Below are positions 10,861 to 48,563 of a DNA stretch of 64,000 nt, piece by piece. The DNA is from Cyanidioschyzon merolae (lineage: Eukaryota), in NCBI GenBank assembly GCA_000091205.1, contig AP006490.2; one strand, 5' to 3'. Numbering within the stretch: the stretch's first letter is position 1; each line of letters begins with the position of its first letter. Under the pieces are notes generated by a model. It saw only the letters and a program-made list of their open reading frames with translations. It was not told the DNA's origin and did not search any database. The translations under genes were made by a program, and so were the position numbers.

Positions 10861-12960
10861 CTATTCGACGCAAGCAACTCCTTGTATATCCACTGCTCGA
10901 TCCGTGTAAAGACGCTCACAGTACGCGAGGCATTCTACAGTGCTTGGCTGACGAGGCAGTTTCCCATTTTCAGCTGCTGCCTGTAGTTCTTGGCGCAGTC
11001 TTGCGAGCTCGGGACCTGGCAGCAGATTGAAATGGATCGCCATTGTCGTTTGGATACCACGCGGAAGTTCCACAGTGCTACCCGCCCGGTGCGCTTTCTG
11101 TGGGTCCGTAGGCATTGACTGATGTCGCCTTTCCTCTGCAGCAGCGGTAACACGCTCTCGCCACAGCCGATATTGTTCCACGAGTTGCTCTTGATGACAA
11201 TACACAACCTTAGCACCTTGTGCCGGATCGAGAAAAGCTTTCCATTCTAGCTGACCAATGGCGCATACCTGGGGAATTAAGGTTTCCTGCCGAAAGCGCT
11301 GCATTCGCGCCTTGATCCTGGGACTCGGGACCAGTCGGAAGAGACGACGACGTGGATCCCAGAACGATGGTTGATAGAGCATCAGGCAGGAGCCGGGAGC
11401 GCGCCAAAAAACTACTCGATAGGGACCTTCAAGGGCGGCCTCTAACGCTTCTAGGGATAGATGGCCCCGAGCCACAAGGATCCCAGCACCGATGAGCCGC
11501 CGAATCTGATGGAGCACGAACGACTGACCTCGAACACGCACGAGGAGAAAGTCACACCCGTGATCATCCCTGCTCAAAAAGGGCTCTACATGGAAACGGT
11601 AGAGCGTTCGAAGATAATAGGGTCGGCGGAGGCGATCCAGGTGCGCAACGGGATACGCGACCTGCACCATGCGGCGAAACGGCTCCCGCGCTTCCAGCTG
11701 AACGCAGCGTGCATCATCGTGCTCGATAGGAGCCCGCTCCTTGTCCGGATGAATCTCTTGAATGACTTGCTTTGCGATATCCAGTTCTTGTTGAAAGCGT
11801 GATGGCGGGCGTGTCGTTGTGCGGGCTTGCATCGTTCCCTCCATTTCGCCTTGTGCACTGGCGTTGTTCCCGTGTCCATTCTGTGATTCGGATTCGTGAT
11901 GAGGAACTGGTCCATGCGATGATCCATCCGCATCGCTCTGTTCTTGTTCGTTTCCCTGCAAATCTGCACGATTGCGTTTGGCAGCTGCTGCCTGTACGCT
12001 CGCCCCCGAGCCTGATCGATAATGCGCCGCTGGAGATGTTGTACCAAAAAAACCTTGCGCTCGATCATCCCGAAAGCGATGCAGTGATGCGCGCCCCTTC
12101 TCATCATCATCTCGCTCGCATTGCTCGCCAGCCGTCGCATTCATCCATGTCCGGGTAGAAGCATCGGCTTCAGCGCCATCACTGCGGGATTCATGATGAT
12201 CATCTCGATCACAATCGATAGCCTCATCCTCATCGTCATCCCCATCTTCATCGTCGACATCGTCGTCATTGTCATCATCGGCCCCGTCCATGTCGCCGTT
12301 GAGCACTTTCGCTAGCGCATCATGACTCGTCTGCTTCCCGCGTCCTTGGATTCTGCGCTCTTTCCCACTAAAATTATGAAAGCGATGTGTTCCTTCGAAG
12401 CAGCGTAATGCCTGAAGGAATAGGTCCTCGCGTCCATCCAGCACCCAACGCGGCAGCAGGTAATCGTACTCACGCAGGGTGCACGCGGAACGAGCGCGGA
12501 AACCCTTGCTCATGCGTTGGCCCCCGAAAACTCGAATATTTGGTGGCAACTGGGCGTTGAGTCTGTCCACGAAAAGATCAGTTAGTTCGTCATTGCTCGT
12601 GAGGTCGCGTCTGAGGTCCAGTAGCAGTTTTGCCGACACGACATTGGCCACTGCGTGCACGCCCTTGTCGGTACGGGACGCTCGCGACCAGCAGATCTTG
12701 CTCAGTTTCATAAAGTTCAGTTCCGTTACTGCACCAATTCGATAGAGCGCTTGCGCAAGCTCGCCCTCAACGGTGCCATCGCGCAAGTCCACGGCTCTAT
12801 CGCCCGAGCCGGCCTCGTTGGCGGCAGTTGCCACTGGTTGCCGGCGTCGCGGCTCAAGAACCTGTGAGCCACGAAACTCCGTGCCAGCGTACCCGAACCA
12901 TAGGGCAATATTCCTTTTCTTCAAATTGTCTGTGGACTCAGAAGAAGCAGACTCGCTCAT
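10861..12960 (-). CDS. tRNA pseudouridine synthase, TruA/Pus1-Pus3 family, with long acidic insertion (about 700 aa)
   Basis: NIALWFGYAGTEFRGSQ N-terminal motif, catalytic TDKGVHAVANV (Asp in RTDxGVHA), C-terminal FVLHQIRRLIG. Track start 13182 is an ATG but the upstream 74 aa are W/R-rich junk; the ATG at 12960 (MSESASSESTDNLKKRNIALWFGY) is a better start. Includes a poly-acidic DDDNDDDVDDEDGDDDEDE tract. Confidence 0.8.
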   Translation of the reverse strand: MSESASSESTDNLKKRNIALWFGYAGTEFRGSQVLEPRRRQPVATAANEAGSGDRAVDLRDGTVEGELAQALYRIGAVTELNFMKLSKICWSRASRTDKGVHAVANVVSAKLLLDLRRDLTSNDELTDLFVDRLNAQLPPNIRVFGGQRMSKGFRARSACTLREYDYLLPRWVLDGREDLFLQALRCFEGTHRFHNFSGKERRIQGRGKQTSHDALAKVLNGDMDGADDDNDDDVDDEDGDDDEDEAIDCDRDDHHESRSDGAEADASTRTWMNATAGEQCERDDDEKGRASLHRFRDDRAQGFFGTTSPAAHYRSGSGASVQAAAAKRNRADLQGNEQEQSDADGSSHGPVPHHESESQNGHGNNASAQGEMEGTMQARTTTRPPSRFQQELDIAKQVIQEIHPDKERAPIEHDDARCVQLEAREPFRRMVQVAYPVAHLDRLRRPYYLRTLYRFHVEPFLSRDDHGCDFLLVRVRGQSFVLHQIRRLIGAGILVARGHLSLEALEAALEGPYRVVFWRAPGSCLMLYQPSFWDPRRRLFRLVPSPRIKARMQRFRQETLIPQVCAIGQLEWKAFLDPAQGAKVVYCHQEQLVEQYRLWRERVTAAAEERRHQSMPTDPQKAHRAGSTVELPRGIQTTMAIHFNLLPGPELARLRQELQAAAENGKLPRQPSTVECLAYCERLYTDRAVDIQGVACVE

Positions 12961-15900
12961 CGCTGAAAGCCACCGATGAGCAGTGAGCCTGATTGGCCTC
13001 GCTAGCGGGTACCAAAGCCGCTCTGGTTTGCAGCCACTAGTCCCTAACTGCTGGTCTCTGCGTAGCGTACGTGAACCTAGTTGCGTAGCGCTTCGTGTCC
13101 AAGGAAGCGTCCGTCCTCGAGAGAGGCAGCCAATGTCGGAAACACCCCAGGAGGACCAGCAAACCGTCCACAGACGCGGCATACAACGACGACTCGCCCC
13201 GAGTCCGCCACCCTGAAAGGAAGACTATCTAGCGAAGCGCCGCGCTGCAAAGTCGCAGCCGCCGCCAGTTTGGAAGCGTTGGTGCCGTCAGACAGAGCGG
13301 CTTCGCTGCACTGCCGTACTTGGGAGCAGGTACCTTTTTGTCGGGGACTGGGGGTCGCCAGTATTTGGGGACGTGGTAGCGGGCACTGCCGGGTTGACGA
13401 GCTCAGGTTTGCACGGGTGCACTGCAGGGCGGGCGGGCGGGAGGTGCTGTTGAACTGGGGTCCTCCGGGGCACCAGCTGTCGCTCACGCGCTGACAAAGT
13501 TGCTCGGGTGCTAGGAGCTCAGATCTGAACCCAAGTGACCCCAGTGAGAGTCTTTGCTGTCACAGGCAGCCTTTCATTGGACCGGTTGTGGTAAAGAGTG
13601 CGGAATCGAGGGAGGAGTTGGTTTCTGCACCTAGCGCTGTGTGCTGGTGCGGCTGTGGCTGCTCTCTGGCCTGAAAGAGCAGCTTCCGAGCCTTGGATTC
13701 CGGTTGCGGTAGACGATCAATCTGAAGGGCCAAAGACCAGGAGCGTTGTATGTCCAGCTCTGAACAGACTAGAAAACACAGCAGTTCCGTTGCGTTTGTG
13801 CTCGTCATGCAGCTCCTGGAGAGTGCTCGTTGCCTTGGAGCGCCGCATCAGGCGAAACGGTACCCGCCTTTGTGTTTTGGTCCAGAAAACAAGCTCTCTT
13901 TAGACTGAATACGACTTCGAGAGTTCTCTACCTGCAAGCTCGTTGCGGAGAGCTGTCCTTGGTTTCCTTGCCCAGCGGCGCGGTGCGCGAAGCAGATGCT
14001 GATACGGGTCTCGGGTTGGGAGCACTGCAGGCGTGTCGTGGCGGAAACAACTCGGCCTTGCAACAGGCAAAGCCGACACCTCGGCCGGACATTTACATGT
14101 CATGGTATTTCTGAACGCCATGGCAAGCCCAGGTACCCGCGTGGACAAGCATAGATGCGAGTGTTGCGTTCGCAGCCTGGACGGATAGCGACAGGGTCAC
14201 GACGAGCCCCGTGGCGTTCCAACAGCGCTCACGAATGGGAAACACTTTGCGACTCATCTCCGGAGATACCTGTTGTGTCTATCGAAACTGGATATGCTGC
14301 GCGTCCGATTGCGGGCCTCTTCGATTCGGTCCTTGCTTTTTACGATGGACAGCATCCATCGTTCATCAGAGGAAGAAACCGCCAATGTTCACAGCAACAC
14401 ATTGTTTACCGCTTTCTGCTGGGACACCACCGAGTCTGCATCGTGAAGACAGAATCCGCTCGGGCTTGCAATTTGACGGCAAAGCGAGCTGTGGCATAGC
14501 CAGAGCGGGTACAGCGGCGGGCATCGTCTCGTGCCTCGTTTCGCCATGCAGATTCGAAGCGTACGTCCAACGATCTGCTCCATGAGAGACATGCCAAGCA
14601 ACGCCAACAATGACGATGCGCGACTCTTCCCGCTACACTGCACGCGGAGGTCCGCGATTCTGTACAGTGCATTCACCGCTGTCGAGGCGGAAGCATACTA
14701 TGCAGAGAGCCCTGCCCTCATCATCGAGCGGTAGATGCAGCAGCAGCAGCAGCAGCCCTGCTGCACACCTTTCGCAGACAGGGTGCTGTCGGTGTGCGGA
14801 CTTGATCACCACGAGTTGCATACATCCTTGCAGGGTTGGTATTCCCGCCACGAGGCGACTGCTAGAGCACGCGCTCGTTCTAACGAAACGGGAGCGCTAT
14901 CGTGAGCGCACGCGATCCAACATCATCGAGAGCGTTTGTCGGAGCGCCTTCCGTCAGCATGCGCTCCGCTACCCCCTGTAAAGTACCTAACTCATGCCGC
15001 CCCAAATCGTCCATCGTTGGCTATGAGCAGACAGCGCGTCCCATGTGGAGCTTTCTCGGAAAGATCCGGCTCTGCCCAGCTCTCGCGTTCGTGAGATCGT
15101 CCTCGGAGGCATCGAATGAATCTGCGCTTTTCGTCGTCACCGCCTGGACGGATCGCGCTCAGCACAGTCCTTGATATTGCTACATTCAGCGCACTTACGA
15201 TTCTCGTCGTGTCAAAAAAGCGCTTCCGTTTGCAAGACAAATCTTCCTTTCTGTGTGGCCGTCGATACACCGACATTCGACAGCGGCAGCACCATTCGTT
15301 ACATAGGATATGCTCCCAGAGGCTCCCATATCTTCGGTCTGCATGGAAACGCGTCTAGGACTCGGAATTCAGTCCACGTAGTGATTGCATCCAGTGGAGC
15401 GGCTGTCACTGTACAGCACGACGGATGCGTCGATGACTCTAGATTTTCGAACTTGATCTCTCTTCTGGACTTTCATTTCGATACTTTAAAATCTTCATCA
15501 TGAACGACCCCGCGTTCTGCAAAATAATATTCCATTTGGAAAAGAGCGTACGCTTGCACGTCAAGCGGACAGCGTACTCGCCGAGCGCACTCTCCAGCGG
15601 AAGCCGCCATGCTTCGGATACGGCTCCGGAAGCAGAAACGAGGAGGGTTGTCGCGGATAGCCTACTGTAACTGCCAAGAGAAGGTACCGAACGGGTCACA
15701 TCTCCCTATATGACAGCGCTCAGGAGTGGAAGCGGCCTGAAGGATAACCGCACAGATATCTAAGCGCAGTTCCGCGTCACCGCCGTGAAGTCCACGCTGA
15801 TGCTCGATACAAAGCGGAAGAAAACAGCAAGCATATCAAGGATTGCATGTATCGTCTCCACTTGAAATGAGTCGACAATAACCAGAAGCAACGAAATCAG

Positions 15901-16045: not shown

Positions 16046-17270
16046 ATTGGCAAGAGATCCAAACATGAGCGTATACGCCCACGATAAGCCCTTGCACCCG
16101 TCGCATACGATCCTCCTGCCAGTTGATCCAGAGGTAAATCCGCATCTTCGAAGGATCAAGGCACGAGAGCGTATACACCCACGATAAGCCCTTGCAACCG
16201 TCGCATACGATCCTCCTGCCAGTTGATCCAGAGGTAAATCCGCATCTTCGAAGGATCAAGGCACGAGAGCGTATACGCCCACGATAAGCCATTGCACCCG
16301 TCGCATACGATCCTCCTGCCAGTTGATCCAGAGGTAAATCCGCATCTTCGAAGGATCAAGGCACGAGAGCGTATACGCCCACGATAAGCCATTGCAACCG
16401 TCGCATACGATGCTCCTACCAGTTGATCCAGAGGTAAATCCGCATCTTCGAAGGATCAAGGCACGAGAGCGTATACGCCCACGATAAGCCATTGCACCCG
16501 TCGCATACGATCCTCCTGCCAGTTGATCCAGAGGTAAATCCGCATCTTCGAAGGATCAAGGCACGAGAGCGTATACGCCCACGATAAGCCATTGCAACCG
16601 TCGCATACGATGCTCCTACCAGTTGATCCAGAGGTAAATCCGCATCTTCGAAGGATCAAGGCACGAGAGCGTATACGCCCACGATAAGCCATTGCACCCG
16701 TCGCATACGATGCTCCTACCAGTTGATCCAGAGGTAAATCCGCATCTTCGAAGGATCAAGGCACGAGAGCGTATACGCCCACGATAAGCCATTGCACCCG
16801 TCGCATACGATGCTCCTACCAGTTGATCCAGAGGTAAATCCGCATCTTCGAAGGATCAAGGCACGAGAGCGTATACGCCCACGATAAGCCATTGCAACCG
16901 TCGCATACGATGCTCCTGCCAGTTGATCCAGAGGTAAATCCGCATCTTCGAAGGATCAAGGCACGAGAGCGTATACGCCCACGATAAGCCATTGCACCCG
17001 TCGCATACGATGCTCCTACCAGTTGATCCAGAGGTAAATCCGCATCTTCGAAGGATCAAGGCACGAGAGCGTATACGCCCACGATAAGCCATTGCAACCG
17101 TCGCATACGATGCTCCTGCCAGTTGATCCAGAGGTAAATCCGCATCTTCGAAGGATCAAGGCACGAGAGCGTATACGCCCACGATAAGCCATTGCAACCG
17201 TCGCATACGATGCTCCTACCAGTTGATCCAGAGGTAAATCCGCATCTTCGAAGGATCAAGGCACGAGAGC
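16046..17270. repeat. tandem satellite, 100-bp unit x ~12; unit contains the perfect palindrome GCGTATACGC
   Basis: Unit gcgtatacgcccacgataagccattgcacccgtcgcatacgatcctcctgccagttgatccagaggtaaatccgcatcttcgaaggatcaaggcacgagag repeats with exact 100-bp phase. The artefactual minus-strand ORFs start at 100-bp multiples (16156, 16256, 16456, 16856, 17056). Copies differ by a few SNPs (c/t, a/c). The array ends 110 bp upstream of the Rad21 ATG. Confidence 0.95.
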
Positions 17271-17316
17271 GCGAAATCGCGCGCCTCTGCCGTTGATCCA
17301 GCGCGGGATTTCGCGC
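17269..17316. promoter_or_regulatory. inverted pair of E2F-type sites (GCGCGAAA ... TTTCGCGC) forming a GC-rich stem-loop, 65-112 bp upstream of the Rad21 ATG
   Basis: gcgcgaaatcgcgcgc (17269-17284) and gcgcgggatttcgcgcgc (17301-17318) are near-perfect reverse complements (about 15-bp stem, 16-nt loop ctctgccgttgatccag). Each arm carries the E2F consensus TTTSSCGC on one strand. Confidence 0.45.
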
Positions 17317-17380: not shown

Positions 17381-19702
17381 ATGTTTTATGCGACCAGTCT
17401 CATCAAACGGCGCAGTTCATTCGCCAAAGTTTGGATTGCAGCAACACTCGGGACCGAACGTCTTCCTCGGTCCTTTCTGATTCGTGTAAGCATTGCTCGT
17501 ATCTGCAGGGAACTGCTAGAGACGATCCATATCAATGCCCTGTCATTGCGACTGGAGGCACTGCTTCTGGTCGGCATTGCGAGAATCTATGAGCGACAGG
17601 TACTACTGTTTTGCACGCTTGCGGAAGATTGGTTTAGCCGGGAGCGGTTACAAGCACGCGTCTGTATACTGTCCACCGATGGACGACAGCACGACGATTC
17701 CGCAGCGGCAGGCGCAGAGGTGGCATCAGATGCTAGTGTCGCTACAGACGCGAATGCCGCGGACGCTGACCAGTTTGCTGCGAGGAATTCGCGAGATACG
17801 CGCTACCTGTTGCACCGGATCGGGGCCAGCAGGCGGAAGCAGCTCTGCGCGCGCTACGGCAGCATCACCTGGGGCCCAGACTCGCGATCCTTGGAGCCGG
17901 TGCCCCAGCAGACGAATGCACCACATACATCTGGTGAATATTTCGCCCATGTTGATGTGCTCTGGCATCTGTACGACTCGGAGCTTTACGGGCGTCACGA
18001 AAGAGCCGCGTTGCTCGCTGCACCCCAGCATGGGTTGGTGGCGACGGCGGCGGCAGCCATGCAACCCTATGAGCTTGCGGCATCTGTTCCCGAAGCCGCC
18101 ACCGAGCCGAGCGGGAGCGTCGAGCGCGCCTGGCCGCTCTCGCCGACACCGTTTCGTGTCAACGACCAGGACACCATTACATTGAGACAGCCGCGAATTG
18201 AGTTTTCGTCTGGCAGTCTGTCGATCATTCCCCAGCTCGATGAACGGGAGAGATTCCCCGAGGACCGCGATGCAAGCGGTGACTCGAGCATCGCTCCCCG
18301 GCGACTATTAGAGGCCCTCGATGCTGCTGCTCTGGCGCTGATCCCAGATGACACAAGTGCACAGACGAATATGGCTCCATTACCCAATCATGGCAATGAA
18401 ACGACTACTGGGCATGCTCAAGACGCACCGCAACGTCTTGTCCCGAATTCGGTGCCAACGAAGGAGCAGCAGGAACGTTTGGGATCGCAACGATCGCTTC
18501 GTCGTCGCAATGCATTGTCGAGCGTAGCCTGTTTGCAGCTTGATGAGCTGGATGCGCTCGCGCTACCACCGAGGCGATTGCAAATGAATATGCATCACAC
18601 ACGGGATCTCGTGCTCGCTTGCCAGCAATCAAATCGCAGCACCAACAGTGCCACTGCAGCGCAAGGTCCCTATCACCAGTCACCGGGCACGGAGGCAGGC
18701 AGTGCTCCAACGCAGTTGCAGCGTCTCACACAGTCTCTCGATGAGAACACATACGTAAGCAACTTGCTCGCGACAAAAGACTTCGTTTATCGATGTCTTA
18801 GCCAAGGTATCTTTGCGGTTGCGGTGGCACGCACCAGCCGCCTCAGAGCTATTTTCGAGGCAGTGCTCCGCCCACATTTCGAAGCACAGCCTCAAAGGCC
18901 AGCTACGGATCCAAAGGACATGCATGGCATGCCACATGCTGGGGAAGAGCGTCATCCGCCACCAGAATCTGAGGACAACGCTCAGCTGCGAGCATCATTG
19001 CCGCAGTCTGCGTCATTTTCTGGAAGCGCTCCGGAGCGATTACGCGGTTATGCTACGGCTGATGGATTCGAGGTGCCCTCACTGGATACAGACACACCAG
19101 GCGCCTACGCGGTTGCCCTTCGTGCAGCCTCATCCGAGCACTCTGCATCGCTGCCGAGAATGACGGTGCCTGATCTGAGGCTATCGGGTGTTCCTGCTGC
19201 GCGGTCTCCATTGGATAGCGGAGACCAATGCTCCCCAGGTTTAGCGATGTCAAGAATACACACAGAACTTATGCCTGTCATGGAGAATGCAGGGCAAGGC
19301 ACATCCCATGCCTCGATAGTGTCCATCGAGGGCGACCGCAGGCCAACCGTAACGCCTCAGTCGTATCGCGAAACACTCATTCGTTGCATCGAGAGGCAGC
19401 GCGCCGGAGACGCCAGCAGTCCAGGTTCATGTCGCTGGGTCAACTTTTCCGCCCTGCTCGGTGCTTTTGTTTCCGCGTTCGACGCCAAAAACGACACACC
19501 AAGCGCACAGAGCACAGAAAATCAAACAAAGCCGTATCCCGCGGCTTGGAGCCGGCCCTGCGCGGCGCTGCTGTTCGCCACCACTTTGAAGCTCGCGACC
19601 ACAGGACAGGTTACCGCCCACCAAACAACGCCGTATGGAAGCATTGCACTGCACTGGAACGGTGACAAGGACCCGGGCACCGCGCCGATTGCGGCGTCCT
19701 AG
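17381..19702 (+). CDS. RAD21: cohesin kleisin subunit Rad21/Scc1 (or meiotic Rec8), 773 aa
   Basis: ATG at 17381. N-terminal MFYATSLIKRRSSFAKVWIAATLG...LRLEALLLVGIARIYERQ matches the Rad21/Rec8 N-terminal domain (MFYxxxxLxKxGPLAxIWLAA...LLGVVRIY). The C-terminus AALLFATTLKLATTGQVTAHQTTPYGSIAL matches the Rad21 C-terminal winged-helix domain. Confidence 0.85.
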   Translation: MFYATSLIKRRSSFAKVWIAATLGTERLPRSFLIRVSIARICRELLETIHINALSLRLEALLLVGIARIYERQVLLFCTLAEDWFSRERLQARVCILSTDGRQHDDSAAAGAEVASDASVATDANAADADQFAARNSRDTRYLLHRIGASRRKQLCARYGSITWGPDSRSLEPVPQQTNAPHTSGEYFAHVDVLWHLYDSELYGRHERAALLAAPQHGLVATAAAAMQPYELAASVPEAATEPSGSVERAWPLSPTPFRVNDQDTITLRQPRIEFSSGSLSIIPQLDERERFPEDRDASGDSSIAPRRLLEALDAAALALIPDDTSAQTNMAPLPNHGNETTTGHAQDAPQRLVPNSVPTKEQQERLGSQRSLRRRNALSSVACLQLDELDALALPPRRLQMNMHHTRDLVLACQQSNRSTNSATAAQGPYHQSPGTEAGSAPTQLQRLTQSLDENTYVSNLLATKDFVYRCLSQGIFAVAVARTSRLRAIFEAVLRPHFEAQPQRPATDPKDMHGMPHAGEERHPPPESEDNAQLRASLPQSASFSGSAPERLRGYATADGFEVPSLDTDTPGAYAVALRAASSEHSASLPRMTVPDLRLSGVPAARSPLDSGDQCSPGLAMSRIHTELMPVMENAGQGTSHASIVSIEGDRRPTVTPQSYRETLIRCIERQRAGDASSPGSCRWVNFSALLGAFVSAFDAKNDTPSAQSTENQTKPYPAAWSRPCAALLFATTLKLATTGQVTAHQTTPYGSIALHWNGDKDPGTAPIAAS

Positions 19703-21648
19703 CGCATCCGAACGAGGCGAAACTTGAGCGGGTTCTCCGTCCTCTGAACCTGCACTTCACCGTTTTCTATCAAATGGAGCAAGATACCGTTGTAGTTCAC
19801 GTCAACAAATCGCAACGTAAACGGAAATTCCTCGTCTTGCTGCGGCTTTCGCCAGAACCACCGTCGAGTTCTCGGGCGCGTCACCCAGGATACCCGCGGC
19901 AAGGGGCTTGTGTTCGCGATCAGGCCAACTGCCTGACAACAGCTACGAAGGAAGCTTTCTTTACTCTTCCCAATATCGAAGACTCGGACGAACTTGGGCG
20001 CTGGTGGTTTCGCCTCGCTATAGATCGTGTCCTCTTCCATATGCAACCTATTTGTCGGGTACGGATAGCGTCAAACGCACGCTCTTACCGTCGAGTCTGT
20101 GATACAAAAGCCTGTCCTTCGAACACTGCAAGCAGCGCAGCAGCAGCGGCGAGCGCAGGGTGCAATCGCCACCTGGGCGACGACGGCGCCGCAGCGCGCT
20201 CGTGTCGAAGCACTCTGCAGTGTAGCTGCAGTAGCAGCACTGCAGCTTAGCAGCAGAGATTTTCTGGACAAAGGCGGAAATGTGCTGCCTGATTAAGTGA
20301 TGGACGCTGCTGACCTAATCGAGCTCGTTGTCGGATCCGAATACGGGGTAAGCTTCGACGCGCACGGTGAACTGCATTCTTTTGGGGTACATGCCTCGGG
20401 CGCAAGATCGTTGCATATAACGAGGGATGAGCGAGTATTTTACTGCTGTCGGCATGAAAGGAAGCGGCTGTCATTCCGTGCCAGACCTCCAGTGCGTGCA
20501 CCAGGTGTGCGGGTGTCCGGATCCGGCACTAGAACAAAAGCTGATGAGGGTCGCACACTCGCTTCCGCCCTAGCGCAGTGATTGAATGAATCTCAGCTGT
20601 TACGCACTTGCCACCTTCTGCTTCATCACCTATGCAGGCTAACGCCCGATACAATCAGCACAATCATGATGATGCTGATGGTGTTGGCAGTCCTGGTTCA
20701 AGAATGTGGCAGCGCAAAGATAATGCGCAGCGGGCTTTCGTCTCTATAAGCTGAACTTTTACGTGTACCTGATCCTGCTCACGAGCCGAATTTGTTGCTA
20801 TTTGCGCGGGCATGCCGCATCACCGTTCCACAGCCCAGGCGTTGCTCGTCCGTAACACTCCATCGTCATCCGAGTCGTAGCACAGCATCTCAACGTCTGC
20901 CGCGGGCTCCCAGTGTCCCGGTCAAACAGCTGTGTCTCTATCCAGAACTGGCTCTATTCAAGAGCGCAAGGATCGCGCCATATCTAAAAACTGTTCCATG
21001 TTCTTTCCAGGCAAACGGCGCCCAGGAAACGCTTTCCAGCCCTTGCCTTGGTCCATAACCCGTGCCTGCGTCGGATCCACAAAAGTCGGCCCCGACGGTA
21101 GGTTCGACTGCGTGGTTGCCGGACGCACCCGCACACCCGGCGCGGCAGCGCCACGTGCCGGCGTCCGCGACCCCGTTTTAGCTGCAGCAGAGGCTGCACT
21201 TCCGCCACTCTTCGCAGCTTTGCCCGAACCAAGACTTACCTTCGGAAGCGACGGAAGAGAGGGTAGTTTACCGGGCAGCTTAGGAAAACCAAGCTTTGGC
21301 AGCTTGATAGCGAACCCCTGGGCAGGAGCGTACCGGCCGCGCAACTGCAGGTCACCGGCGAGTGCCACACCAGCACCCAGAACAAGCGCTGCAGTATTCC
21401 AGTGCGCAGCACTCAAAGCACCTTGTGTGAAGACCGCTGCACTATTCATGACGTATATGAGCAAGAGTCGACGAAACCGCACCCTGTCGATACACAATCG
21501 TCGAAGAGCGCTGCGCGAAGTTCCTTAATGTAGCGATTGAGCTCGCGCTGAGCGCAGCGCTGCCGCCGGAGGTGCACGATCGCGGCGAGCTGCACGCGCT
21601 GTCAACATTCGATGCGGGTGACTGAGGCGCGTTCGCTGCGCGCTGAAC

Positions 21649-21784
21649 CGGACACGGCAGTAGGACGTAAGAAACGACCAGAATATCCGAGAAGAAGTAT
21701 AGGTAATGTAACTTGGAGGTAGGGTGTTTGATGAATACTTCACCGTGCACTGAAAAAAACACAAAAAGAAAGGTAAAAGCGCGC
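21649..21784 (+). repeat. dispersed about 138-bp element, copy B (about 85% identical to the reverse complement of 49070-49207)
   Basis: Hand alignment: the rc of this segment (gcgcgcttttacctttctttttgtgtttttttcagtgcacggtgaagtattcatcaaacaccc...ttacattacctatacttcttctcggatattctggtcgtttcttacgtcctactgccgtgtcc) aligns end-to-end with 49070-49207. Contains TATATA-like tataggtaatg. Lies 262 bp upstream of the IMPase ATG. Confidence 0.8.
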
Positions 21785-22045
21785 AGTCGGAGAATACTAG
21801 CCAAAGTAAACGTTCTGTCAATAAAAAAACTAGCCGCAGCGGTCTGCGCTGATCACACATTTCCTATTGCCGCTGGTGCCGCTGGTGCCGCTGCTGGTGC
21901 CGCGAGAAGATTGCGCTGTTGTCTCTATATCCTTGACCACGTTCTCGTTCGTAGAATCCGCTTACGCTTCGTGCTCCGGGGGTTCTCTCATCAGGTTTCA
22001 CTTGGAAAGCGACTCTGGGCGAATCGCTTCGGGAGCAGAGCCTGA

Positions 22046-23137
22046 ATGGGTATCACGGAACAGTTGGACGAGACGGTGTCGAAGACCGAGACAAGCGGCG
22101 TGCTTCCCTCGGTGAGCGCCGTTGCCGAACTCGTAGCCGGGTGGTTTGGTTTCGATGAGGTGCAGGATCAGGATCTATACAGCGAGACGATTGCGGCTGC
22201 TGTTGCGGTGGTCGCAGGAGGCCTGATCCTCAAAGCAGCGTGGAACCAGCTGCACTGTCCACAGGCGCTGTATGCGGATAGCAGTAGCGCGCCTGCTGGA
22301 AGCAAGTCTCAGGTGCTCGTTGCTACCAAGACGAGCTCTGCTGACATTGTCACCAGTGTAGATCGTCAGATAGAAAGTGAGATTCGACGGATCCTGGTAC
22401 CAGCGTTTCCAGGCTATGCCTTTATCGGGGAAGAGTCCGCGTACGTCTCCAGCACAGTGACGATGAACGCCGCAAAAACGGGTGCACCAGCGTGGATGGT
22501 TGACCCCCTGGATGGTACGACCAATTTCGTGTCAGGTGTACCCCATATTTGCACCTCTGTGGCGTTACTCCGGGAAAGACACGTAGTTCTCGGGGCCGTC
22601 TACAATCCGCTCACAGATGATTTATGGGTAGCAGTACGCAACCGTGGTGCCTTTCTCAACGGTAGGCGCTTGTATTGTCAGCGCCATGTTCCCCTGTCGG
22701 ATGCGGTTGTTGTGACAGAGTTTGGGTATGAGCGCAGCGCCGAGGGCGCCCGGCGTATGTGCGCTGTGGTTGAGCGGCTGCTCTGTGAGCGCGTTCGAGC
22801 GATTCGCATGCTCGGTTCGGGTATCTTGGATTTGCTGTTTACAGCGCAAGGTGTCGTACATGTGGTGTACGCGGGAATTGCCGGCGAGGGCTGGCAACCC
22901 TGGGACTACGCTGCTGGTGTTCTGATTGCCAAAGAGGCCGGCTGTGTTGTCGCGTCACTCGAGTCACCACCTGGGATGACTTGTGACGGCGAGTTCCTGT
23001 CGCGCTGTGCCCATGACTTTGACATTTTCGGCCAGAGCATCCTGTGCGCATCCAGCCGTGATCTCGCCCTCGAGGTGCACCACGTCATTCGGGAAGCCTG
23101 CGATCGCGTCTCAGAAAAGCATCCGGCCGATGCATGA
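22046..23137 (+). CDS. inositol monophosphatase (IMPase/SuhB family), 363 aa with about 90-aa N-terminal extension
   Basis: ATG at 22046. TSVDRQIESEIRRILVPAFPGYAFIGEES, WMVDPLDGTTNFVSGVPHICTSVAL (the DPLDGT metal-binding motif) and the C-terminal WDYAAG motif are classic IMPase signatures. Confidence 0.85.
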   Translation: MGITEQLDETVSKTETSGVLPSVSAVAELVAGWFGFDEVQDQDLYSETIAAAVAVVAGGLILKAAWNQLHCPQALYADSSSAPAGSKSQVLVATKTSSADIVTSVDRQIESEIRRILVPAFPGYAFIGEESAYVSSTVTMNAAKTGAPAWMVDPLDGTTNFVSGVPHICTSVALLRERHVVLGAVYNPLTDDLWVAVRNRGAFLNGRRLYCQRHVPLSDAVVVTEFGYERSAEGARRMCAVVERLLCERVRAIRMLGSGILDLLFTAQGVVHVVYAGIAGEGWQPWDYAAGVLIAKEAGCVVASLESPPGMTCDGEFLSRCAHDFDIFGQSILCASSRDLALEVHHVIREACDRVSEKHPADA

Positions 23138-25832: not shown

Positions 25833-26004
25833 GAACAGGAGCGCGTTCACTGTGGACCTCAAGGAGCGCCTCAGTAAGCAACCTCTGTCCTACGTTCATC
25901 GCCGCTCGGTAGCGCTCGTCGACGTCGTGGCGCGCTGGACACGTCGCACTTCCGCTGGCCGATCGCGGGCGACATCCGTGGCGCAGCGCACGCATTGCGT
26001 ATGG

Positions 26005-26772
26005 TGCGTGTTGATCTTCGATTTTCGTCTGATGGAACGTTTATGGATGGTGCAGGGATACCAGCTTCCTTGATGGATATTCGTGCTTGGCGTTGCGTCT
26101 AATCGTTCGTCTTCACTCTGCCTTCAAGTTCCATGATTGATACATATCCACTGGGTGTACAGAGAGACAGTCGATTTTCGTCTGATGGAACGTTTATAGA
26201 TGGTGCAGGGATACCAGCTTCCTTGACGGATATTCGTGCTTGGCGTGGCGTCTAATCGTTCGTCTTCACTCTACCTTCAAGTTGCATGATTGATACATAT
26301 CCACTCGGTGTACAGAGAGACAGTCGATTTTCGTCGGATGGAACGTTTATAGATGGTGCAGGGATACCAGCTTCCTTGATGGATATTCGTGCTTGGCGTG
26401 GCGTCTAATCGTTCGTCTTCACTCTACCTTCAAGTTCCATGATTGATACATTTCCACTGGGTGTACAGAGAGACAGTCGATTTTCGTCTGATGGAACGTT
26501 TATGGATGGTGCAGGGATACCAGCTTCCTTGATGGATATTCGTGCTTGGCGTGGCGTCTAATCGTTCGTCTTCACTCTACCTTCAAGTTCCATGATTGAT
26601 ACATATCCACTGGGTGTACAGAGAGACAGTCGATTTTCGTCTGATGGAACGTTTATGGATGGTGCAGGGATACCAGCTTCCTTGACGGATATTCGTGCTT
26701 GGTGTGGCGTCTAATCGTTCGTCTTCACTCTACCTTCAAGTTCCATGATTGATACATTTCCACTGGGTGTAT
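26005..26772. repeat. tandem minisatellite, 153-bp unit x 5, in the 5' region of the squalene epoxidase gene
   Basis: gattttcg recurs at 26020, 26173, 26326, 26479 and 26632, an exact 153-bp period. The array begins about 175 bp upstream of the ERG1-like ATG (25832, minus strand). The overlapping plus ORF 25687-26073 is an artefact. Confidence 0.9.
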
Positions 26773-28112
26773 TGCTCATTCTCCACTTCCTATCGTGCGC
26801 CAAGCCCGCACTAAGTGTCCACGATATCACCATAGCGCCGGTTCGGATGCAACACGAATACTGGACGGCTTTGGCACAGCACTAGGGGCCCGCGGCGCGA
26901 GGCGGCATTCTCAAGGTGATGTCGAGGTCGTCAGTGCGAGCCGATCGAGGCGCACGAGCCCTGCACACGTGTCCATGTTGAAGCACCGATCGTACGCAGG
27001 CGAGCGTCCGTGCGAGCATACGCTTCTTAGCGCCTCTATGACAGCACTCAGGCAGCCTGCCAATGAGTTCAACAACGCGCAGATGCTATGCGAACTGCCC
27101 GTACAACCGGTAGGAACTGGTAAAAAAGGTTCGTCTTGGTCATGCAATGCAAACGCGTGAGCGCACTGAAAGGCAGGTTTTCGTTCCGCATCGCAGCATG
27201 CTGGGCAGTCTGAAACGGAGGCTACAAATGCCAGGATTCCATACGTGCCGTCAGTAGATCTGCATTCAGAGCGCGTCATCCACGGCAGCGTGTTCTTTCT
27301 GTTGCTTCTGGAGCGCGAACGGGCGTGTCAGCGTGATCAACGCCTAGGTGTCTTGGTTTCCCGGTCTGGCGCTTGTTCCGGGGAACGAAGCACGAGGAAA
27401 CGCCCACAGTATCGAGTGCCTGCGCAGGATACATGCGCGTACCCTTTACAAACGACAATGTTTCCCATTTCGCTGTGCATAAACGCAACACCATCTTCAA
27501 CCGATGCGGATCCACACGGGTCGCAGTGCGCTTTCGGCGATGATGGATATGCAGGGGATCCTCGCACTGACCGGTTTCTTCTGGCCAGGATTGGGTACAG
27601 CATTGAACCGCATGCTCGCCGCCATGCAGGCCTATGCGCGACACGTCGATGACCACACTAGACGTTGTCCACGAGCGGCTCCGGCGTACGGAGGCGGCTA
27701 CGCAGTCACGGAGCCAGGCTATGCCGCGGATCGCAGTTTACTGTTCCGTGGCTTTCAAGCCATCCTCGCGTCCATAAGCACCATTTTGCAACAGGAAATA
27801 GGAGACTGATGCCAGGTTCCAGCGTACTGGACGCGGTATCCACGCCCTACCCAAATAGCCGCTTTTCCGAACGCCTCTGTCCCGTCGCAGTACGGGCTTT
27901 CGATGCCACCTCAGACTGCTTGTTATTTTTCTTGCACCTGGATCCTGTAGTGCACAAGCCACTGCGTCATTGCAAACGAATGCAGGCGAACGTAGTGCCG
28001 CTCAGCTGGCATCGCGTCGTCAGCGGGCACAGGCGTACCGCTGCGGCGGTTTGTCCGAACGTTGTCACCGCACGAAGGGCATCGCTGTAGGCAGGGCGCC
28101 TCTGACGTTCAT

Positions 28113-33334: not shown

Positions 33335-35220
33335 GGGACCAGGTCGAGAGGTTTCTTCGCTAGTTCAGCGACGCGGACAGATTCGACCACGGGTTGCCTT
33401 GCTGCTAGTCTACGGAACACTTGACGAGTGATGATTTGGGTGTGCGACACACAAGCAAAGGAGAAAAGTGGATGCTTGCGCCTATGCATTTGATTATAAT
33501 AGCGCTTATTTCAAGAGTCTTTTCTCGAGGGCACCGGGGATCATCTCGATCACTTGTCCATAACGAATTCCAGCGGTGTAGGATCCAAGGAGCCACACTG
33601 ACAACCATAAACCGGAATCCCGACACTCTCCATGAACCAGGACGCCCTGCTCGCTGTACGTCGACTGCCGAGGCAGTCCATCTGTAAAGTTCCAAGGACA
33701 AATCAAAAGCCAGGCAAAGCGTGAGCATTCCGAGCTCCGTTGCAAAGCGACACAGGTAGGGAAAAGGAGCACACGGTCTCTCGCCATCGACCTGGAGTAC
33801 TTGCACAAGACGGATAACGCGCCTCTCATGAACGTTATAGAGGCAGACAAAGCGTCAAGTCGCTGGCGCTCTGCGTACATACGGGCGGCGTCTATCATGG
33901 GCCCCGAAAGCCATTATCCATTCCGAATTCTGGGATCCGTGGTCAATCGAAACGTTTTGTCATCTGAAAATAAAATCTGTCAAGCACACGACGAGAACTG
34001 CAACCGTTGTGTTCGGGCATGTTTTCTCTAAAGTTATTTCGGTCCTGCGCCCTATGATTTAGAAACACTTTAGAAGTGTCTGCAGATCCGCTCATCTCGA
34101 GGCTCTACCAAACACAAGAATCGCTTGTGTTGAACAGACTCGGATGATCGAGTACCTCGCGATCGATACATCCATTGCCGTCTTGCACCCTTCCGTGGAC
34201 GTCCGGATGCCTCCGACGAACCATGCATGCAAGCATCGAACTTGGCCTCTCCACAGGCACCGATGTATTCAGGAACGTTGCTCACGCTCCATAAGCACCC
34301 ACGGAGGTGAACAAGAGGACCAGGTTCAGCGTAGGCGATGTTCTCGGCATTTAAGTGCGGCATTTTTCAAATAAGGATAGCGCACTCGATGCCAGCTGGT
34401 TCGGGAGTCAGCTCTCCGAATGATCTGGATATGCGGGAACCTTGGTGCTGCATAGAAAGCCTGTCCACTTCGGACAAAGGTCGCGGCGTGCAGAGAAAAA
34501 AAGTTCATATGGATTGGTCGTATTCCATGCATTCTCGAAATGCCTGGAGCGAACGCTGTCATGCCCTATCGCATGGCTTCTTGGCGTGTTCCTGCAATGC
34601 TCGCATCCTCTGACTCGATCGAATGATGCCGTTCCTGGAATCCGTGGCTGGCAAGTCTTAAAGTATCCTTTATTCCAAAGGTATCGGTTGCCATGGATAA
34701 GCCCGTTGTGTACCAGCGTTGCACGTGATTGGCACGCTGCCCTGCGTCACGTTCAAAGGTGCTGTTCGAGGCTGTTGGTGCGTTTCTTGTCCAGAGGTTT
34801 CGCGTCTGCTACGCCGACGCGCATGCGGACCGTATCCCAGTCGCGTGCCCGAGGATGTCGTGGTATTCATCGGGACGTACACAGCCATCAAGTATCGATA
34901 AAGCATGCGACGCACCAGAAACCAGGTCTGTGGATCTCAGCAGCCGAAGCTCGACGACACCAGCATATCGCTTTTACCCAGACGCCTACCGCACACAGCG
35001 CACTGGTGGAAAACGTAGCACACGACGACGTTGTGGACTTGCTCCCGACAGCTCCACCTGGGACCTGCTTTCCCAGATTGTAACTACCCAAGCGTTGCTG
35101 TCGGGACGCGGAGCTGAGCGAGTCTCGGCTCCTGACGCCTGCCTACCAGCGATCACGCGACATCGTCTCGTTTCTTCACTGTCGCCACTGAAGCGCTGAG
35201 CTCCCAATCGATCTGAAAGC

Positions 35221-45275: not shown

Positions 45276-45410
<135 letters not shown>

Positions 45411-45655
45411 GGGGTTTTGTCGTGCGCTTCTACTGCTGTAGGAGTCGGAGCGAGTGCTCCGGATACGACGAACCCGCACCCGCTTTTCCGGGCGGTTTCT
45501 CGTTGCGTGTACCTTTGTTGCGCTTCAAAAGCCGTCCTAATGGTGTAGGCACTAGCGTCTCGTGCTGGTGGCTAGTTGAGGTCAATGCAGGCAAGCAGTC
45601 TGCAGGACGGAATCAGGCATAGAGTCCTGAACGATACAGGACTTTACAGTACTGT

Positions 45656-48466
45656 TTAGATGCGAAAGATCAAGTTTGAGCGGTACATGATAAGGCCCAT
45701 TGCTTCCAGTGCCTGGAGGGCGCGCTCCACCTGTTCTCTTTCGATGGTTGGATCTGCGAGCTGTTCAACGAGCTGATCGAATGAGGTGGACTCGCTCCGC
45801 TCCGCTGATGTAATGGCTTCAATAGCTTGCTGGACGCGCTCGAGCAGAGCGTCATCGACGAGCGGTACGGTCATAGCGTCCGCCTGTTGGTTGGGCGGGG
45901 TCACTCGCTCCCCGGTCACGCGCAGGGCAGCTAAGTTTTCGGTAACTGGTCTTGTCTCCGGGCCGCTGGATATGCCGCCTGCCTGCGGCGACAAAGTCGA
46001 ATGTGCTGCAATGTCACTCGCCTGGGGCGTTACACTGCTGCCGAGCGCTGCACCTGATCGAACGCGTCGGCGAATGCGCTGCTGCGACGCTCTCGACGAA
46101 CGTGACGCTGCTTGCCGCCGTCCAGGGCTGTAGGATGGCTCGTCGCTCGCGGATGCATTGGATGCGGCCTCGGACTCATCGCCATCATCACCGTCGCCAT
46201 TATTGTCATCGTCGTCATCGAAAGCGAACGGATCCAAACGGCGACTCGCTGGCGCGGTTCGACGTCGCGTACCAGAGCGTTGCGGCAATGGCGCTGCAGC
46301 CGATGCCGACACCGGACTCGTATTCGCGTCAGGTGAGCGCACGGGGGCAGCTCTGGCGACGTCGTGTTCGCGGTCGATTTGAGTCTCATGGTAAAGGGCG
46401 AAATTCAGCAGATCAAAAGCAGCACGCGCATCAGTGATGTCCACTGTCAGGCTGAGACGCAACTTGGCGTGCGCAGTTGCGAGGCGAATCATTGTCTCCA
46501 GCTGCCGAGCGGTAATGGGTAGCGTGCGAGCGTCATCTTTGGCTCGCAAGTCACGGTATCGCGACGCAATGTACGCCGCTGCCTCTTCAGTAAGCTGCGG
46601 ACTCAGCTCACGTGCGTAGTGGATGTATTTCTGTAAGAACGGCACGGAGAGGATGCGATGCGCGGCAGCACCCTGGATAGCTTCGTTGGCCTGGTGCGAT
46701 ACGAACAATGGTGCCGTCATGGGATCATCGCTTGCCCTAGCAGCACCAGCGGCAGCAGCAGCATCCGATTCGAAGCCCTGATCGTCTGTTGACTCCACGG
46801 TGGTCGCTTCCGCTGGGGGCGCGTTATTTTCAGGCGTCGCTCGCTCGTCGAGTGGCGTGTCCACGTCTGCGCCGGCGTATCCCGCCAGTTCCGCGCGACC
46901 TGCCCTGTCGGGGTTCCGATACTGATGGACGCGCAGCACATGCCTTGCAATGAGCTCGTCTCTTTCGCGGGAGATAGTGTCAAGAACGATGAACACCAAA
47001 TCGAAACGCGAGAGCAACGAATCGGGCAGGGCAATGTTTTCTGCGGGTTTGCGGCGTCGATCATAGGATCCGTAGATCGGATTCGCCGCGGCAAGTACGG
47101 AACAGCGAGCATTCAAAGTAGTATGGATGCCGGCCTTGGCGATCGTTACCGTCTGCTGCTCCATAACTTCATGGATTGCAACTCGGTCCGCATCGCTCAT
47201 CTTGTCGAACTCGTCGATGCAGACGACACCCCGATCAGCGAGTACCATTGCGCCGGCCTCGAGATGGCGCTCCCCCGTGTCTGGGTCTGTGGTGACGGCA
47301 GCGGTGAGACCGACCCCCGAGGAGCCCCGGCCGGTAGTGGATATGGCGGACGGGGCCACGTGAAGTACGAAGCGCAGCATTTGTGACTTGGCTGTGGACG
47401 GGTCTCCCACGAGCAGGATATTGATGTCGCCACGGAGGTGGGTGCCATTGCTGAGGTTCTTTTCAGCGCCCCCTACGAGCTGCAGTAGTACCGCTTTCTT
47501 AATGAAATAGTGGCCACAAATGGATGGAGCAATCGATGCAGTCAGCAACTCGATACCACCCGGCGTGGAGGCTACCTCACGAATGTTCGCAAGGTCGCGT
47601 TCAGAAAACTTGAGGCGATGCTGTGTGTCGCTCAACGGAATACAATGATTGGCCACGATCTTGGTCGCAAAGTACGTCGTCGTCTTGCCTCCCAGAGCGC
47701 GATATGTGCCGATAATACGGACGCGCATGCCGGGTTTGCAAACATCGACCAAATCTGCTTCAAAAACAATGTCAACGGTGCGCGGCAACTGGCCCGGTGG
47801 TGTACGTTCGGGCATCTCTTGCAGGGTCGCCGTCTGAAAGTCGCGGTATGCCGATAACCCGAATTCCGTTTCCATGGGGTTGCCGTCTTCGTCACGGGTG
47901 GGATAGATGGCTGCCCCGAGCCCTCGGTTCTGGGCGACATCCAGCGAGATACCATCGCGGTAGACGCGGTGAACTATTTCGTTCTTCGCGGGGATGAAGT
48001 GCACAGACTCTACGACTTTGGGTCGAACAGCAGACACGCGAGTAATTATACCGTCAACGCATACCATCGAGTTCAGCATCGAGGCACGCAGTGAGCGCGG
48101 CGTCGCGTGCAGCGCCCCGAAAGCACCCTCGAACCCAACATGGAGGCGCTGACGTTCCCGCCCAGCAGCACCAGCAGCCGCGAGTGCTGTATTCCACTGC
48201 GCGATATAGTCTGTAAGGACTTCCTCAAATATTGGTAGAAATCGTAGCGGATTTTCAAACAGAAGCTTTGCTATTGTGGGTTCCTCGCGACGTAGGAGGT
48301 CCAGTGAGACGATAAGGCGTCGCTGACGTCCCCGTCGCAGCGCCTCAAGTTGTTGCTGTAGAGGTTCCCACACAGGAGCCTCTGACTCGAACAAGTCCCT
48401 GATCTTGGAACGAAAGTCTTGATCCTGATCAGGGGCAGTAAACAGTGATTGAAAAGCCGTCTCCAT
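45656..48466 (-). CDS. MCM3: DNA replication licensing factor MCM3, about 936 aa
   Basis: Collinear with human MCM3: RLIVSLDLLRREE vs RLIVNVNDLRRKN; VCVDGIITRVSAVRPKVVESVHF vs [23 protein letters not shown]; Walker A GDPSTAKSQ; arginine finger SRFDL; IDEFDKMSDADR; acidic C-terminal tail. Track start 48640 is GTG; the ATG at 48466 (ccATGg, METAFQSLF...) aligns with the MCM3 N-terminus. Upstream in-frame ATGs at 48619, 48601, 48547 cannot be excluded. Confidence 0.85.
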   Translation of the reverse strand: METAFQSLFTAPDQDQDFRSKIRDLFESEAPVWEPLQQQLEALRRGRQRRLIVSLDLLRREEPTIAKLLFENPLRFLPIFEEVLTDYIAQWNTALAAAGAAGRERQRLHVGFEGAFGALHATPRSLRASMLNSMVCVDGIITRVSAVRPKVVESVHFIPAKNEIVHRVYRDGISLDVAQNRGLGAAIYPTRDEDGNPMETEFGLSAYRDFQTATLQEMPERTPPGQLPRTVDIVFEADLVDVCKPGMRVRIIGTYRALGGKTTTYFATKIVANHCIPLSDTQHRLKFSERDLANIREVASTPGGIELLTASIAPSICGHYFIKKAVLLQLVGGAEKNLSNGTHLRGDINILLVGDPSTAKSQMLRFVLHVAPSAISTTGRGSSGVGLTAAVTTDPDTGERHLEAGAMVLADRGVVCIDEFDKMSDADRVAIHEVMEQQTVTIAKAGIHTTLNARCSVLAAANPIYGSYDRRRKPAENIALPDSLLSRFDLVFIVLDTISRERDELIARHVLRVHQYRNPDRAGRAELAGYAGADVDTPLDERATPENNAPPAEATTVESTDDQGFESDAAAAAGAARASDDPMTAPLFVSHQANEAIQGAAAHRILSVPFLQKYIHYARELSPQLTEEAAAYIASRYRDLRAKDDARTLPITARQLETMIRLATAHAKLRLSLTVDITDARAAFDLLNFALYHETQIDREHDVARAAPVRSPDANTSPVSASAAAPLPQRSGTRRRTAPASRRLDPFAFDDDDDNNGDGDDGDESEAASNASASDEPSYSPGRRQAASRSSRASQQRIRRRVRSGAALGSSVTPQASDIAAHSTLSPQAGGISSGPETRPVTENLAALRVTGERVTPPNQQADAMTVPLVDDALLERVQQAIEAITSAERSESTSFDQLVEQLADPTIEREQVERALQALEAMGLIMYRSNLIFRI

Positions 48467-48563
48467 GGTACCTAAACGCGAAGCAGCAGCGAAAAGCGCA
48501 CGCTGTTGTTCAGTGGGTCGATGCGCACGCAGCCTGCGTGCACGCATGGGTGCATCGCAGCGA

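Follow-up and report, generated by a model that had tools for sequence, protein, structure and literature searches.

Two related intergenic stretches in the segment of Cyanidioschyzon merolae DNA analysed here (64 kb in all, referred to below as the window) are very likely independent dead insertions of the 3′ UTR ends of a non-LTR retrotransposon (LINE) of Cyanidioschyzon-like red algae. The family to which they belong is, with comparably high confidence, the same as that of the “retroelement, alive” of C. merolae 10D. This assignment is directly supported by the dispersal of many copies that have one A-tailed 3′ end in common and differ in their 5′ ends, by the duplications bordering them, and by their contiguity with a reverse transcriptase (RT). 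In particular, the contiguity with an RT open reading frame (ORF), taken together with the A-tailed 3′ end, the 5′ truncation and duplications of variable length, leads us to read the copies as LINE 3′ ends.

Two homologous copies in the window

An initial annotation had described here a non-coding, TATA-containing element of about 138 bp, present in two copies of about 85% identity with the same orientation relative to the downstream genes, and had proposed a shared promoter module, a small non-coding RNA gene with its own TATA promoter, or a solo-LTR/MITE-like relic. The size proved too small, as homology reaches about 21617-21829 and 49022-49280, and we read the two stretches and their borders as follows:

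About 21617-21829, plus strand: copy A, a 5′-truncated LINE 3′ end of about 175-213 nt
49022-49280, minus strand: copy B, a 5′-truncated LINE 3′ end of 259 nt, of the lineage with a “short-type head”
49281-49292, minus strand: target-site duplication of copy B, 5′-side, ATCGTGTGCTGC in sense orientation, read from the sequence
49007-49021, minus strand: target-site duplication of copy B, 3′-side, GTCGTGTGCAGCTGC in sense orientation, directly after the tail, read from the sequence

The element as first delimited (21649-21784) lies inside copy A, in which homology is robust from position 21653 onwards and the preceding stretch, 21617-21652, is far more diverged. Copy A terminates in GTCAAT followed by seven A residues (the A-run occupies 21823-21829), matches the family profile in nhmmer at hmm 79-307 (E = 3e-56) as well as a 1.4-kb LINE-tail profile (E = 1e-42), and was recovered in seven metagenome contigs of the same locus at 99% identity. 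Copy B matches the LINE-tail profile at hmm 1141-1408 (E = 1e-61); its terminus reads GTCAATGAAGAGAA, and its tail, GAAGAGAA, is a decayed A-run. The same insertion is also present in a metagenome contig (L128) that is 98.7% identical over 7 kb.

BLAST aligns the two copies over 172 nt (E = 8e-37) in inverted genomic orientation, and they constitute the only inverted repeat of at least 40 nt in the 64 kb, with 119 nt ungapped at 82%. Homology and inverted orientation had thus been correctly recognized, but identity over exactly the coordinates first given (21649-21784 and 49070-49207) amounts to 79% (112 of 141 columns, 8 gap positions). Compared with a consensus built without the window, copy A is 81% and copy B 85% identical, while A and B share 75% with each other. 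Since both are nearer to the consensus than to one another, their relationship is star-like, as expected for independent insertions and not for a local duplication.

Each copy precedes the next gene and is oriented in its sense, as had been noted, although the gene labels had been swapped: it is the 21.6-kb copy that adjoins the ORF of inositol monophosphatase (IMPase; 22046-23137, plus strand), with position 21784 lying 262 bp before the ATG at 22046, and the 49-kb copy that is situated 450-600 bp upstream of the MCM3 ORF (45656-48640, minus strand). The description as non-coding agrees with stops in all three frames of the sense strand; on the antisense strand, which is rich in T, two frames are open in either copy. 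No reverse-transcriptase sequence was found within the 64-kb window.

Dispersal and copy number

Gene callers often report spurious ORFs on T-rich strands, and the antisense of copies A and B was translated in three frames and the resulting alignment searched against a protein database. This translated search retrieved 36 different spurious ORFs (“hypothetical proteins”) containing the element, each in an unrelated context, which identifies a dispersed multi-copy family, and it also revealed a family consensus longer than the part common to copies A and B. The contigs encoding three such proteins carried one to three copies of the element each per 20 kb. Metagenome DNA was furthermore scanned by exact match to a conserved 22-mer, GAAACGACCARAATATCCGAGA, which occurred in at least 120 metagenome stretches. 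Within 1.2 Mb of fetched sequence, the family profile gave 184 matches, and clustering by 3′ flank resolved at least 57 distinct insertion loci, so that the notion of a two-copy element no longer holds. Three single assemblies contained at least 30, at least 28 and at least 15 distinct loci, two of them carrying the window's own loci at 98.7-99.3% identity; all of these copy numbers derive from metagenome assemblies of mixed strains and from the exact-match scan through one 22-mer.

Syntenic loci were compared within the same species (L001-L010) and in two relatives (L011-L015). Copy A is present in the same-species syntenic contigs at about 99% identity, and neither BLAST nor the profile detected anything similar upstream of IMPase in Cyanidiococcus and a second related lineage.

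Seen from the window alone, which contains only two clearly similar copies, and these in inverted orientation, a local segmental micro-duplication, a solo LTR or a MITE might have been suspected. To this group of explanations we assign a negligible probability, as dozens of copies reside in unrelated contexts and each window copy is nearer to the consensus than to the other copy. Moreover, the two ends of the element, GCCTCGAGCC... and ...GTCAATGAAAAAA, do not repeat one another in either direct or inverted form, and the duplications flanking the copies vary in length instead of being fixed as for a MITE or, at 4-6 bp and next to TG...CA termini, for a solo LTR. A solo LTR is also at odds with the A-tailed 3′ end, with the non-LTR body of the element and with the reported lack of LTR elements in C. 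merolae. The earlier suggestion of a solo-LTR/MITE-like relic was therefore right in recognizing a transposon relic and wrong as to its class, as neither LTRs nor terminal inverted repeats are present. A MITE had also been considered by us on the basis of a weak GGACGT/ACGTTC pairing of the ends in the predicted fold, and was dropped once the true ends were known.

Structure of the element

The 3′ end is the same in all copies, reading ...AACGTTTTGTCAATG and then 5-11 A residues (44 loci among the matches listed). A preliminary delimitation of the element as a SINE of about 290 nt with its 5′ end at GCCTCGAGCC had to be rejected, as the supposed flanks formed a single cluster of 70 members and hence were still part of the element; it was the conservation of these “flanks” that led to the upstream extension, which revealed the LINE body. 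In this first extension, homology per locus covered 117, 174, 262, 332, 561, 790, 1320, 1408, at least 1843 and at least 2500 nt. When chained to a long reference copy, lengths ranged from 84 to at least 2883 nt (57 loci among the matches listed), with 5′ extents of 84, 141, about 230, about 295, 333, 420, 473 and 555-571 nt, longer ones of 869, 1075-1091 and 1341 nt, and contig-limited copies of at least 1408 to at least 2883 nt. This distribution departs from what simple random truncation would give, the 5′ ends of 20 loci falling near one position and those of 13 near another.

Long copies contain an ORF for a reverse transcriptase. That of locus L079 (11477-12256, minus strand) matches Pfam RVT_1 with E = 2.6e-23 and a score of 83 bits against a cut-off of 29.6, carries the motifs FIDFQKAFDT, RGLRQGDP and LLFADDVVLL, and has the R2 and LINE-1 ORF2 reverse transcriptases as its nearest solved structures. 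It is 85-89% identical to two “retroelement, alive” proteins encoded on chromosomes 10 and 11 of C. merolae 10D, an identity that spans 61% of the query, as covered by the 348-aa 10D proteins. In six distinct loci, RT-coding sequence precedes the 3′ end by a constant 1.49-1.55 kb and lies on the same strand. In long copies, the last ORF stops roughly 270-400 nt before the 3′ end, so that copies A and B would essentially represent 3′ UTR, and this would also account for the conservation irrespective of reading frame seen in the initial annotation. Pfam detected no significant C-terminal domain and no endonuclease in the 5′ region of L141; by eye, only a WNICGI...IGKETQ motif is seen. None of the loci fetched contains a full-length element with both an intact ORF and an endonuclease domain.

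Insertion signatures

Target-primed reverse transcription by non-LTR elements has well-established hallmarks, namely a 3′ end that is fixed and A-tailed, 5′ truncation to varying degrees, and duplications of variable length. Duplications were sought as the longest exact string shared between a 70-nt window at the 5′ junction and a 62-nt window at the 3′ junction. Exact duplications of at least 10 bp (10-23 bp) were detected in 16 of the 49 loci among the matches listed, compared with 0.6% of mismatched locus pairs (Mann-Whitney p = 8e-10), and those of 23, 18, 15, 15 and 14 bp are located exactly at the junctions; overall, the target-site duplications vary in length from 7 to 23 bp. The A-run is followed by T in 36 of 44 loci, the next base being C in 27 and the one thereafter G in 24 (among the matches listed), and this preference implies that duplications typically start with ATCG. 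The complete triplet TCG follows the tail in 16 of the 44 loci among the matches listed, against a background of 3%.

With respect to the window copies, borders with a target-site duplication are recognizable for copy B, but not for copy A. The duplication of copy B comprises 8-9 exact bases, then a 3-nt indel and then TGC, and has the ATCG start typical of the family: the 3′-side sequence GTCGTGTGCAGCTGC corresponds to ATCGTGTGCAGCTGC in L128, whose allele starts ATCG.... No target-site duplication was found at the junctions of copy A, which is consistent with an older insertion.

Based on these signatures, we propose that the endonuclease of the element would nick chromosomal DNA, preferring an A-run followed by ATCG, and that the freed 3′-OH would prime reverse transcription of the element RNA from its short A tail. 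Reverse transcription would usually abort early, which may explain why most copies retain only the last 85-300 nt, and a staggered break of the second strand would then give rise to the target-site duplication of 7-23 bp. Under target-primed reverse transcription, the empty site should consist of the flanks with a single ATCGTGTGC... copy. The copies in the window are presumably functionally inert. No copy was found inside a long ORF (57 loci among the matches listed, ORFs of at least 200 aa), and the copies may sit between genes because selection would remove genic insertions in such a compact genome.

Promoter and RNA-gene readings

As both window copies precede their neighbouring gene by 220-600 bp and have its orientation, a shared TATA promoter or cis-regulatory module driving IMPase and MCM3 might be considered, all the more as family copies are found by gene 5′ ends more often than by 3′ ends (39 vs 20 among the matches listed, with ORFs of at least 200 aa over 57 loci as a crude gene proxy). 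Nevertheless, we consider this very improbable. Next to gene 5′ ends, 23 copies are in sense and 16 in antisense (among the matches listed), at distances from about 0 to 2 kb; together with the unconserved hexamer, these proportions indicate that the orientation shared by the two window copies is not a property of the family, and their common direction towards the next gene is probably a coincidence of two. Of the outcomes that the initial annotation itself had named as refuting, random orientation of the copies relative to genes tells against the promoter, and a restriction to just these two copies does not apply. As for the TATA motifs that both copies were said to contain, tataggtaatgtaac is indeed shared, but tatataggtaatgtaac is confined to the 49-kb copy, with aaGTATAGGTAATGTAAC in its place both in the 21.6-kb copy and in the family consensus. 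Likewise, TATATAGG is restricted to the 49-kb copy, where the 21.6-kb copy reads GTATAGG, so that TATATA occurs in just one copy and the consensus has GTATAGG. Further arguments against a promoter module are its absence upstream of IMPase in the two related lineages mentioned above, the lack of any evident reason for co-regulation of IMPase and MCM3, and the fact that a retrotransposon 3′ UTR bordered by target-site duplications fully accounts for the sequence.

A small non-coding RNA gene, for instance a C/D-box snoRNA, could be suspected from TTGATGA on the sense strand with CTGA 14 nt later (TGATGA and CTGA being the presumptive boxes), where Rfam also reports a sub-threshold C/D snoRNA match (ceN54, 12.8 bits against a gathering score of 60, E = 8.9). 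The spacing between TGATGA and CTGA is, however, too short for a C/D snoRNA, and the candidate was dropped for this reason and for want of support from model searches. No Rfam family reached its gathering score in the 64-kb window, and copy B and a full-length copy had no Rfam match at E up to 10. Folding of both strands of both copies against shuffled sequences yielded z-scores of -0.69, +0.97, -0.65 and -0.40, none of them significant. The target-site duplications, the variable 5′ truncation and the RT upstream also speak against a snoRNA, and an RNA gene of this kind is in our view extremely improbable; a gene with its own TATA promoter fares no better, given the missing Rfam and tRNA matches, the lack of a significant fold and the unconserved TATA.

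A possible short lineage

The preferred explanation, dead LINE 3′ ends, leaves room for a variant in which copy B, and perhaps also copy A, represents a SINE-like non-autonomous retroposon of about 295 nt that derived from the LINE 3′ UTR and forms a lineage of its own, borrowing the LINE machinery via the shared last ~190 nt. We regard this variant as a real possibility, albeit one that we do not favour. It is suggested by the distribution of 5′ ends: 20 of 56 loci among the matches listed start within about 15 nt of GCCTCGAGCCGACGCCC, approximately 295 nt from the 3′ end, and 11 of these 20 have exact duplications of 9-23 bp at the GCCTCGAGCCGACGCCC junction. A second cluster comprises 13 loci starting about 235 nt from the 3′ end (among the matches listed). 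In addition, the head of the short copies and the corresponding part of 17 of 20 long copies can be told apart at about 45 sites, and the last ~190 nt are identical between the short and long consensus sequences. Similarity among short copies is 83.5%, compared with 78.7% between short and long ones, and the nearest neighbour of a short copy is another short copy in 16 of 20 cases. The ~235-nt class also carries the short-type head (29 sites vs 0), as does copy B (32 vs 3, out of its 35 informative diagnostic sites).

Several points argue against a separate lineage. A short-type or mixed head also occurs in three long copies, namely L021 (at least 1464 nt), L016b (869 nt) and L066 (420 nt), and the same data could equally well reflect a LINE subfamily in which truncation has a hot spot; these data moreover come from loci sampled through one 22-mer in mixed strains. 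The head has no tRNA, 5S or 7SL similarity and no evident polymerase III promoter: ARAGORN found nothing in eight loci or in the 64-kb window, and Rfam, searched at E up to 10, gave no match on the full ~295-nt copy or on copy B. The fuller proposal, in which the short copies including B form a promoter-less, SINE-like retroposon that measures about 295 nt and goes back to the LINE 3′ UTR, present in dozens of copies mostly by gene starts and inserted at A-run/ATCG sites, is accordingly put forward as tentative and rather doubtful.

Short non-autonomous retroposons sharing the 3′ end of a partner LINE are known from several systems, such as RIME/ingi in trypanosomes, EhSINE/EhLINE in Entamoeba, and SINEs with LINE-matching tails. 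The ~295-nt class would resemble them in sharing the LINE tail over ~190 nt while forming its own lineage. Unlike classical SINEs, however, its head is not tRNA-, 5S- or 7SL-like and lacks an evident internal promoter, and a few long copies share this head. If confirmed as such, it would constitute the first report of a non-autonomous retroposon from Cyanidiophyceae, a host lineage cited as almost transposon-free; in the literature, we found no description of SINEs or of the LINE tail in Cyanidioschyzon.

Relation to known retroelements

The genome of C. merolae 10D was reported to contain 26 non-LTR (class I) retrotransposons and no LTR elements, with retroelements, counted by reverse-transcriptase similarity, making up about 0.7% of the genome (Nozaki et al. 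2007, PMC1955436). The element described here agrees with the 10D “retroelement, alive” in being non-LTR, in having a host devoid of LTR elements and in the 85-89% identity of the RT upstream, and the LINE tails in the window are ordinary transposon debris of this known Cyanidioschyzon retroelement family. Short 3′ UTR fragments like copies A and B would, however, escape a count that relies on RT similarity.

In their fixed A-tailed 3′ end, varied 5′ ends, variable duplications and intergenic dispersal, the copies resemble truncated mammalian L1 and other endonuclease-bearing non-LTR copies. They differ from the common “dead on arrival” LINE copies in their very short tail (5-11 A), in the A-run/ATCG preference, and in 5′ ends that cluster at two positions.

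Further fragments in the window

Apart from copies A and B, profile searches identified additional candidate pieces of the family in the window:

26634-26906, minus strand: a third, older LINE fragment, 3′-end variant without the internal A-rich stretch
25979-26633, minus strand: a tandem array with a 153-bp unit, 4.9 copies, 97% alike
33889-33975, plus strand: a short 3′-terminal variant-2 LINE tail of about 87 nt, ...GGTCAATCGAAACGTTTTGTCATCTGAAAATAAAA
4794-4876, minus strand: a weak, uncertain match to the head of the LINE tail (nhmmer E = 0.0025 and E = 9e-5)

The third fragment matches the first family profile at hmm 14-194 (E = 2.5e-16) and the variant-2 profile at hmm 6-271 (E = 2.4e-25) in nhmmer; by BLAST against other loci it gave a single weak match, its support thus coming from the profiles only. 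The unit of the adjoining array, which Tandem Repeats Finder places at 26018-26771, equals the last ~150 nt of this fragment including the tail and the junction ...AAACGTTCCATCAGACGAAAATCGA, and the array accounts for four more nhmmer matches to the variant-2 profile (hmm 146-307, E = 4e-9 to 3e-7). The short tail at 33889-33975 matches the same profile at hmm 190-310 (E = 2.8e-18) and is possibly flanked by a 7-bp duplication, TCTRTCA.

As judged from these sequence matches, the 64-kb window alone carries four or five tail fragments, which, along with the at least 30 loci in one population assembly, suggests that past activity of the family has been under-counted. Mildly new are the number of tail fragments in a transposon-poor genome, the preference for ATCG targets and the short lineage, which is possibly SINE-like. 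For annotation, it follows that a feature resembling a promoter or a small RNA is retrotransposon debris and should be masked, not annotated. Furthermore, dated, polymorphic insertions, the ATCG preference and the ~295-nt lineage could serve as strain markers, and they could offer a small-scale model for how LINEs and SINEs behave over time where an algal genome is very compact.

As to its general traits, the window is intron-poor, with long ORFs uninterrupted by introns on either strand, and has a GC content of about 56%. Exact-protein searches with its IMPase and Rad21 gave no match. In a homology search, the squalene epoxidase encoded here matched a protein at 100% identity in JGI metagenomes and none at that level in NCBI; its counterparts in Cyanidiococcus yangmingshanensis and a sister lineage reach 76-77%. 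We read these traits as those of a Cyanidioschyzon-like red alga belonging to a lineage different from 10D. Two ORFs of 773 aa each, located on opposite strands, are unrelated to each other.

Insertion-site preference and gene context

The LINE (non-LTR retrotransposon) family has an insertion-site preference, namely for an A-run followed by TCG. At the 3' junctions of metagenome loci L021-L140 (among the matches listed) and at window 49007-49021, the A5-11 tail was succeeded by T in 36 of 44 loci, then by C in 27 and then by G in 24, and TCG stood directly after the LINE tail at 36 % of loci as opposed to 3 % after other A-runs. Since T, C and G commonly succeed the tail, target-site duplications usually begin with ATCG. 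Furthermore, an ORF-based proxy applied to the 57 distinct insertion loci among the matches listed counted 39 adjacencies of LINE copies to gene 5' ends and 20 to gene 3' ends, a roughly twofold excess, and none of the copies at these loci lay inside an ORF of at least 200 aa. This pattern is consistent with copies either inserting into the intergenic DNA on the promoter side of genes or surviving there.

The surroundings of copy A, the LINE tail near the IMPase start codon, comprise the following features:

19703-22045, 2.3-kb stretch between Rad21 and IMPase that contains copy A
20958-21497 (-), ORF of 179 aa without Pfam match
19699-20046 (-), ORF of 115 aa without Pfam match

No ORF within 19703-22045 had a Pfam match, and the corresponding place in Cyanidiococcus holds a gene call of 199 aa. 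Two further ORFs, 10861-13182 (-) and 17381-19702 (+), are both exactly 773 aa long, are encoded on opposite strands and are separated by about 4 kb; as they proved unrelated by BLASTP, their equal length is a coincidence.

Long and short LINE copies

The copies at L077 (3187-5320) and L079 (9960-11800) are 97.8 % identical over 1.84 kb and occupy different insertion sites, as their 3' flanks differ. This would indicate that the LINE was retrotransposing in these populations until fairly recently. The 5' part of the copy in L141 (3383-3811) encodes IGFASWNICGI and IGKETQ, separated by 24 aa, and then a segment rich in lysine; these motifs resemble the first ones of an apurinic-endonuclease-type domain, with a putative deletion thereafter, and a Pfam search of this 5' part returned no significant match.

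Short copies (L016, L017, L031, L041, L057, L074, L089, L092, L099, L108, L139, L140 and others) form a sequence lineage separate from most RT-linked long copies, and their 5' ends fall into two clusters, about 295 and about 235 nt ahead of the 3' end. Possibly they represent a SINE-like derivative, or else a truncation hot spot.

Three spurious ORFs on short JGI contigs, P0121, P0124 and P0138, have one half in common, and the other half matches different loci; in P0121, what flanks copy A on the left is joined to foreign sequence on the right. These mosaics are likely chimeras that arose at the repeat during metagenome assembly.

Tandem repeats

Tandem arrays in the window include the following:

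25979-26771, 153-bp repeat, 4.9 units, 97 % alike
16067-17271, 100-bp repeat, 12.1 units, 98 % identity

The 153-bp unit is made up of the final ~150 nt of a variant LINE tail, with the tail plus the junction (...AAACGTTCCATCAGACGAAAATCGA) repeated in every unit, and the array is directly contiguous with a degenerate LINE fragment at 26634-26906. The sequence amplified in tandem upstream of the squalene epoxidase gene is a LINE 3' end.

The 100-bp unit had no match to the LINE profiles; its array, also present in metagenome contig L023, ends about 110 bp ahead of the ATG of the Rad21/Rec8-like ORF (17381-19702). In addition, about 35 units of TCTG form a long (TCTG)n microsatellite at 45276-45415, shortly after the stop codon of MCM3.
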